Positions 38,825 through 39,598 of a stretch of 55,878 bases of DNA are shown here, piece after piece. Position 1 is the first letter of the stretch. The number at the start of each line of letters is the position of its first letter. The translations under genes and the position numbers were made by a program. The notes beneath the pieces are model-generated. The model was not told the origin of the DNA and searched no databases. It was given only the letters and a program-made list of their open reading frames with translations. Source of the DNA: a virus (lineage: Duplodnaviria > Heunggongvirae > Uroviricota > Caudoviricetes); the IMG/VR virus record IMGVR_UViG_2839610755_000009; one strand, given 5' to 3'.

Positions 38825-39598
38825 TCAAAAATTAGGTGAGTAACGGACCGGGGACATAGCTCCTTTTTTTCTTAATTCATCTGGTATTTTTTTTCCAAGA
38901 TAAAGATTTGCTATTTCAGGTGGGGCTTCTCGACCTTCAAAACCATAGCGAGAACTTTGTGTTGCCTCAAAGTCCGGATCCTCGTCCCAGTATTTCATCG
39001 TAGGGAAATTTTCACGTGTTGATTTGAGCCATTTATCAGCAATGAAAACCCCTCGAACGATCCCCCTTACAGTAGCAAGAATGACTTCTGCTTGGCTGGC
39101 GCGAGAGACATTAATGCGCCAGCTAAATCGAACCGCATCATAAAGCTCTGAATCCTTTGCACTTCTGTTAACGGAAATCATTAATGCTTTATGATGAAAT
39201 GTTATGGTTTCGGGTTGATATGTTGCTATCAACTCTTTGACATGCGCGGCGCCGAATTCATTGCTGCCAGCACCATTCATGATATTCGTTAACCCAGGGT
39301 AGGCATCAATAAGTGCTGCTTCGACTTCGTACGCCGTCTTTTCATCAGTCATTCCGTGTCGATGGATGACATGGATAACCTCAAGTCCTGCTAACCTTAT
39401 TTCTCTAATTTGCTTTAGCTTGTTGCTCAGTAACTCGTCATCATCAGTCGCTGCCACTTCACCGCGCATATGGGCAAATACGCGGTTACCTTTGCCTTTC
39501 CCTACATAGAAGGTGCTTCCGTCCCTCGGATCAATCAATCGGTATACATACCAGCCAAGGTGTTCAATTACTCCAGAAGGAAACTCAGTAATATCCAT
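38825..39598 (-). CDS. GIY-YIG nuclease-domain protein (moron)
   Basis: 257 aa from MDITEF; N-terminal GIY-YIG signature [24 protein letters not shown]. Confidence 0.6.

Follow-up and report, generated by a model that had tools for sequence, protein, structure and literature searches.

The window analysed here, a stretch of 55,878 nucleotides from the viral record IMGVR_UViG_2839610755_000009, contains on its minus strand an open frame whose stop codon ends at position 38825. Read from the ATG at 39598, this frame encodes a protein of 257 aa followed by the stop (38825-39598; MDITEFPSG...SPNF). An alternative in-frame TTG at 39649 would yield a protein 17 aa longer; the ATG at 39598 is the start used alike in the RefSeq annotation of identical DNA, in the crystallised proteins discussed below and in the phage homologues. 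The first-pass annotation had placed a 257-aa minus-strand gene at these coordinates, directly beside a tail-fibre invertase, and both the frame and the ATG start agree with that call. RefSeq names the protein WP_000355484.1, 'LEM-3-like GIY-YIG domain-containing protein'. Judged by its matches to the PADLOC PD-T4-3 model (E=2.4e-140) and to PDB entry 9U75 (E=3.7e-172), the ORF is a real gene and not a chance reading frame.

The gene lies within a prophage of about 40 kb flanked by an exact 47-nt direct repeat. The left copy (attL, 1399-1445, plus strand) corresponds to the 3′ end of the tRNA-Thr gene thrW (tRNA at 1369-1444) and the right copy is attR (41921-41967, plus strand), which places the gene inside a thrW prophage island. 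From thrW, the prophage comprises an integrase, lambdoid early genes, an HK97-type head, a contractile tail, a baseplate, an invertible tail fibre, pin and the gene under study. The invertase, a neighbour outside the system, is encoded at 38165-38764 on the plus strand (RefSeq pinE, with its start at 38210), is of the Pin-type serine family (Pfam Resolvase E=1.2e-51, plus HTH_7) and is preceded by the invertible tail-fibre/tfa segment. As the earlier reading had stated, the two genes are immediate neighbours; they converge, with 60 nt between their stops. The GC content of the gene is 43.9%, versus 51.7% for the prophage body, which fits an acquired cargo.

Other features of the window were recorded alongside. 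Within an HTH gene of the replication region, positions 7521-7643 hold a 15-nt periodic repeat (consensus about TCAAAATCTGACCCG) in six overlapping copies, which resemble lambdoid origin iterons. Two direct repeats of 1310 bp, 100% identical and of insertion-sequence size, occupy 16387-17696 and 32565-33874 and are missing from the otherwise near-identical FRIK944 prophage; the region that holds the second is annotated in FRIK944 as a baseplate assembly gene, which is already frameshifted there. Because of this insertion in a baseplate gene, the host prophage is probably defective and may be degenerating. On its right side, the thrW attR is followed by a P4-like satellite, with an integrase at 42078-43310 and psu/delta-like genes further right. 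The slot after this integrase (43314-46590) was assigned to a Lamassu system by PADLOC and annotation, in which LmuA is spread over two ORFs (43314-43730 and 43703-44320), LmuC lies at 44305-44778 and LmuB is spread over three ORFs (44744-45403, 45434-46024 and 46024-46590). Judged from its reading frames, this Lamassu system looks pseudogenised by frameshifts or stops.

Comparison with other genomes delimited a single-gene cassette of about 1.03 kb (38764-39793) around the gene. The same boundaries were found in strains NS-NP030, 1802D011 and YD786, where the left neighbour is a lambdoid tfa instead of pin. The cassette contains no partner gene and its flanks vary among genomes. On its right, a degenerate 66-nt 3′ fragment of a tRNA-Ser of the serU type (39775-39840, plus strand) was recognised by sequence matches as a relic att site at the border of the cassette; its T-loop is altered and ARAGORN makes no tRNA call. 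The segment 39775-40400, which consists of this fragment and about 560 nt, has counterparts at the serU locus of most E. coli genomes and also in the att regions of the lambdoid phages ev099, mEp332 and PhiR70_1. The presence of a relic att site within a thrW island indicates that the right arm of the prophage is mosaic. Between the cassette and attR lie a gene for an AraC-family regulator (40414-41166), which had no PADLOC match, and a truncated IS3-family transposase (41208-41573). In strain YD786 the trio of cassette, AraC gene and IS3 fragment is likewise found together, following a lambdoid tail gene.

We then considered the expression signals of the gene. The upstream non-coding part of the cassette (39599-39793, minus strand), which travels with the gene into unrelated prophages, is presumed to hold its native promoter. 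A scan of the gene's strand for strict consensus sigma-70 promoters returned nothing, and no Shine-Dalgarno sequence was detected for the gene. By eye, a weak TTGTGA-17-TAATAT was seen upstream, which might tentatively be taken as a promoter candidate. An imperfect 13-bp hairpin is predicted by RNA folding between the convergent stops of the invertase and the gene (38764-38805; -16.7 kcal/mol, z=-1.84). The intrinsic terminator scan of the gene was negative because this hairpin lacks a T-run. Since 7 out of 200 shuffled sequences folded equally well, the hairpin is barely better than shuffles and we claim no terminator. Because these 195 upstream nt accompany the gene as part of the cassette and the native promoter of the O157:H7 allele is functional, we infer that the gene carries its own non-consensus promoter. 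As consensus signals are absent, expression in the source strain is likewise deduced from that near-identical O157:H7 construct.

Profile searches assigned the whole protein to a single family. Residues 1-256 matched positions 1-255 of the 256 positions of the PADLOC PD-T4-3 model (PDLC04031), and the protein also matched PHROG 5356, a function-unknown family (E=2e-143); an NCBIfam search of the 257-aa protein returned no family. Regarding the nuclease domain, Pfam PF22945 (LEM-3_GIY-YIG) matched residues 28-110 (E=2.1e-14), while the classical GIY-YIG family PF01541 reached 13.9 bits, under its cut-off of 22.6. A sequence search of the PDB yielded only two matching sequences, both of CMoRE, whose structures were described by Liu et al. 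(Nat Commun 2026; PMC12923530). The E. coli O157:H7 protein (9U75/9U8D) is identical at 253 out of 257 positions (98.4%, ungapped), and the E. coli APEC O1 protein (9U7U/9U7Z) shows 85.2% identity over 257 aa, also ungapped. On sequence grounds the gene is therefore CMoRE, an already known and catalogued defence enzyme whose family has been characterised structurally and biochemically.

The four differences from 9U75 (window to 9U75: T51A, E55D, Q169K and N197H) spare every residue named in PMC12923530. E55 and N197 are the states found in APEC O1, and Q169 is the sole substitution absent from both solved proteins, which carry K169. No functional difference is expected. The window protein keeps Y17, Y19, Y31, R39, E93, D52-D53-D54-E55, R80, V92, L96 and Y127. 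Following the crystal structures (PMC12923530), the N-terminal GIY-YIG domain was assigned to 39263-39598 (minus strand). It includes the 'GIYxY-YIG' motif (Y17, Y19 ... Y31-V-G33; 39500-39550, minus strand), which a residue check found invariant with APEC O1 and the phage homologues; the N-terminal signature quoted in the first-pass annotation corresponds to residues 17-39 and is thus borne out, also by the PF22945 match. In an alignment of five sequences (the window protein, the APEC O1 protein and three phage homologues that are 33-46% identical), M1, Y17, Y19, Y31, G33-K34-G35, R39, E93 and N105 were invariant. R39 and E93 would be the catalytic Arg and Glu of the GIY-YIG fold; they were assigned from this invariance because the text of PMC12923530 gives no numbering for these residues. 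The acidic run of the autoinhibitory lid loop (D52-D53-D54-E55; 39434-39445, minus strand), located from the sequence and PMC12923530, reads DDDE in the window and in APEC O1, and DDDD in the O157:H7 crystal protein.

The C-terminal half, about residues 118-257 including Y127 (38828-39247, minus strand), corresponds to the modification-sensing domain of the CMoRE chains (PMC12923530). The earlier reading had left it unassigned. This stands as far as Pfam is concerned, since the C-terminal 145 aa searched separately matched no family at E<=10. It does not stand for structure: residues 113-257 matched only CMoRE chains in the PDB (E=3.8e-94), and the domain counts as assigned because crystallography defines it as a 5hmC-sensing domain.

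The family is known under two names, CMoRE and PD-T4-3. PD-T4-3 is credited to E. coli ECOR68 and to Vassallo et al. 2022 through a citation in Liu et al. (PMC12923530); since the name 'PD-T4-3' was not found in the main text of Vassallo 2022, the ECOR68 origin rests here on the citation in Liu et al. The O157:H7 gene under its native promoter lowered the plating of T2, T4 and T6 by about 10^5-fold, while the APEC O1 allele under its native promoter gave weak defence (PMC12923530). The purified enzyme requires Mg2+ or Mn2+ and cleaves DNA with 5hmC or glucosyl-5hmC, not DNA with C or 5mC; there is no strict sequence requirement, two modified sites are needed, and the cleavage pattern is CN11/N9G with 2-nt 3′ overhangs (PMC12923530). 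T4(hmC) remained sensitive and T4(C) escaped (PMC12923530). The GIY-YIG domain carries an extra tyrosine ('GIYxY-YIG'; Y17, Y19 and Y31), and mutants of these tyrosines lost nuclease activity and were impaired in defence (PMC12923530). The active site is shielded by an acidic lid of 15 residues, and a 4A mutant of this lid is toxic and cuts unmodified DNA; the tetramer depends on V92/L96 (PMC12923530). In the crystal, the C-terminal domain bound 5hm-dCTP through a hydrogen bond to the main chain of Y127, and the authors report no structural homologue of this sensing domain (PMC12923530). In the native host NILS69, deletion of PD-T4-3 sensitised the strain to Tevenvirinae (10.1101/2024.12.20.629700). 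A Capnocytophaga homologue that is 48% identical cuts T4 DNA and, at high dose, Mu DNA as well, but leaves T4-GT7 DNA uncut (PMC12366544).

Taking these data together with the sequence identity, we regard it as very probable that the window gene encodes a CMoRE/PD-T4-3 enzyme acting by the mechanism of its near-identical proteins. By analogy with them, the window protein would assemble as a tetramer (a dimer of dimers), in which the C-terminal domain would bind DNA carrying 5-hydroxymethylcytosine or glucosyl-5hmC and a pair of modified cytosines about 21 bp apart would be read (CN11/N9G). The N-terminal GIY-YIG domain, with Mg2+ or Mn2+, would then cut between the modified cytosines and leave 2-nt 3′ overhangs. 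The acidic lid loop (DDDE, residues 52-55) would shield the active site and repel ordinary DNA, so that the host chromosome and the prophage would be spared without any methylase. As a result, incoming T-even genomes would be destroyed directly and non-abortively, and both the host and the resident prophage would gain. Cleavage of 5hmC/5ghmC DNA and protection from T-even phages are thus attributed to the window allele through the 98.4%-identical protein. An anti-phage or restriction-like nuclease, possibly dependent on DNA modification and distinct from homing endonucleases, had been proposed at first reading, and the 98.4% identity to CMoRE/PD-T4-3 speaks for it. The presence of the gene would predict that the O157:H7-like source strain resists T-even (5hmC/ghmC) phages, which bears on the choice of therapeutic or biocontrol phages.

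Whether the gene is still active had to be weighed, since an intact ORF could be an unexpressed or non-functional passenger of a defective prophage. The insertion-sequence-sized repeats, one of them in the baseplate gene, would fit a silent or decaying remnant, as would the fragmented appearance of the Lamassu system in the adjacent P4-like element, the failure to find a consensus promoter or Shine-Dalgarno sequence for the gene and the weak defence conferred by the APEC O1 allele under its native promoter (PMC12923530). However, the gene contains no frameshift or stop, many O157:H7 genomes share exactly its DNA sequence, and at least 80% of the gene is present in 823 genomes. Moreover, the O157:H7 allele with its native promoter protects about 10^5-fold (PMC12923530) and a chromosomal copy is active in NILS69 (10.1101/2024.12.20.629700). 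With the ORF intact and widely conserved, a pseudogene or remnant was rejected as very unlikely.

Mobility of the cassette raised another explanation, namely a free-standing homing endonuclease of the GIY-YIG class (Seg- or I-TevI-like), which would propagate itself by cleaving its cognate site in cassette-free prophages. This would account for the occurrence of the 1.03-kb cassette, with sharp boundaries, in several different types of prophage. The N-terminal part also matches PHROG 314 'homing endonuclease' weakly (E=0.0021), and some phage homologues, including full-length ones of jumbo phages, are annotated as 'putative homing nuclease'. These names are unverified annotation, however, and the whole-length match to PD-T4-3 is 137 orders of magnitude better than that to PHROG 314. 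As they match no Pfam family at E<=10, the C-terminal 145 aa show no recognisable DNA-binding module of known homing endonucleases. The gene lies outside any intron or intein, interrupts no conserved gene and sits in a variable cargo slot that is filled by unrelated cargo elsewhere, and the near-identical proteins cut only 5hmC/5ghmC DNA, which is absent from E. coli prophages (PMC12923530). Architecture, position and published substrate specificity all being against it, a homing endonuclease was rejected as highly improbable.

A toxic abortive-infection nuclease, which would degrade host DNA and so kill the infected cell instead of sparing it, could be argued from the abortive behaviour of many single-gene prophage nucleases and from the toxic lid 4A mutant that cuts ordinary DNA, but we hold it to be scarcely credible and rejected it, since CMoRE gives direct defence and not abortive infection, cultures at MOI>1 grow normally with host DNA reads stable during infection (PMC12923530), and the acidic lid of the window protein is intact (DDDE).

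We also examined how the cassette is distributed. The gene was present in 838 out of 5426 complete E. coli genomes (about 15%), and 823 genomes carried at least 80% of it at 95-100% identity; in many O157:H7 genomes its DNA was 100% identical. A junction query consisting of the pin 3′ end and the cassette had matches in 2559 of the 5426 complete genomes and was covered to at least 80% in 566 genomes, indicating that the pin-CMoRE junction is kept in them, while other genomes matched 38764-39793 by itself. About two thirds of the E. coli copies lie behind pin and the rest behind tail-fibre assembly genes of lambdoid prophages without an invertase. For instance, in NS-NP030, 1802D011 and YD786 the cassette follows the tfa of lambdoid siphovirus prophages (gpJ, lom, stf, tfa) that have no invertase. 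The slot after the invertase, to which the first-pass annotation had drawn attention, is therefore a frequent location, although the invertase is not required, since about one third of the copies do without it. What is conserved is a location between the tail-fibre module and the end of the prophage.

The parallel with e14 that had been drawn at first reading held up when the two loci were compared. The invertase shows 89.5% DNA identity to the e14 pinE region, the homology ending at 38766, two bases past the invertase stop, and e14 carries mcrA in the slot that follows; its order is pinE, mcrA and the icd' att remnant. A small, non-random survey covered five pin-terminated slots (the window, e14 and three others) and the pin locus of a P2-like phage. 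Besides mcrA in e14 (extracted locus L006, 4572-5405), the slots contained a Dazbog-like pair (L013, 4234-6515; DzbA E=1.6e-54, DzbB E=1.4e-7), a trio formed by a DUF2335 membrane protein and small hypothetical genes (L011, 4053-5111) and a 215-aa hypothetical protein without a family (L012, 4046-4693). The pin locus of the P2-like phage is empty of cargo, as the tail sheath gene comes directly next. The same cassette at the tail-fibre-distal end of unrelated prophages, together with the mcrA slot of e14, points to a cargo slot, in line with the accessory position suggested at first reading. No specific account of an 'after-invertase' defence hotspot turned up in a literature search. We tentatively propose, as a possibility rather than an expectation, that the slot between pin/tfa and the att site of e14/SfV-type and lambdoid E. 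coli prophages might be an uncatalogued, exchangeable defence hotspot and that its unannotated genes might be candidate new defences. The uncharacterised genes of the slot could thus be mined for new defences.

Homologues were also found outside prophages. When the locus was compared with isolated phage genomes by megablast, the invertase and the tRNA-Ser/att flank were recovered, not the CMoRE gene, and tblastn against the same type of genomes detected CMoRE homologues at 32-46% identity only. Full-length homologues with 38-46% identity and all catalytic residues kept occur in the jumbo phages Moabite and 2050HW (Serratia), OBP (Pseudomonas) and N1M2 (Klebsiella). Unlike the window protein, these homologues lack the DDDE acidic patch, and their carriers are virulent jumbo phages. 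The full-length genes of Serratia phage Moabite (extracted locus L008, 3001-3765), Pseudomonas phage OBP (L009, 2992-3753) and Escherichia phage PhiR41_1 (L010, 2956-3723) were located; their products, 33-46% identical to the window protein, all retain the catalytic residues and lack the DDDE patch of the lid. One carrier of a homologue is a 108-kb phage encoding ParA. The lid-less homologues of jumbo phages might serve as weapons against co-infecting hmC phages in phage-versus-phage competition.

Finally, we compared the window protein with known systems. The CMoRE proteins of O157:H7 and APEC O1 have the same length and two-domain architecture and are likewise single-gene systems. McrA of e14, an HNH type IV enzyme, occupies the equivalent slot directly after pin and before the prophage end, and it too works alone as a modification-dependent nuclease, with modified-cytosine DNA as its substrate (PADLOC mREase_IV). 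However, the two proteins are unrelated: McrA has a C-terminal HNH domain (PF01844, E=3.5e-15) and the opposite orientation, whereas the window protein has an N-terminal GIY-YIG domain and gave no Pfam match to HNH. The likeness to McrA is thus, by analogy, one of position and role, not of family membership. GmrSD and the PvuRts1I/AbaSI family have the same target as CMoRE, T-even DNA, and cleavage by the PvuRts1I family probably resembles the CN11/N9G pattern of CMoRE with 2-nt 3′ overhangs; their nuclease folds differ from that of the window protein, whose sequence matches in the PDB are CMoRE chains alone. I-TevI, the Seg proteins and UvrC/LEM-3 have the catalytic GIY-YIG fold in common with the window protein, which differs from them in its extra tyrosine (GIYxY-YIG), its 15-residue acidic lid, its other C-terminal domain and its location outside any intron or intein.
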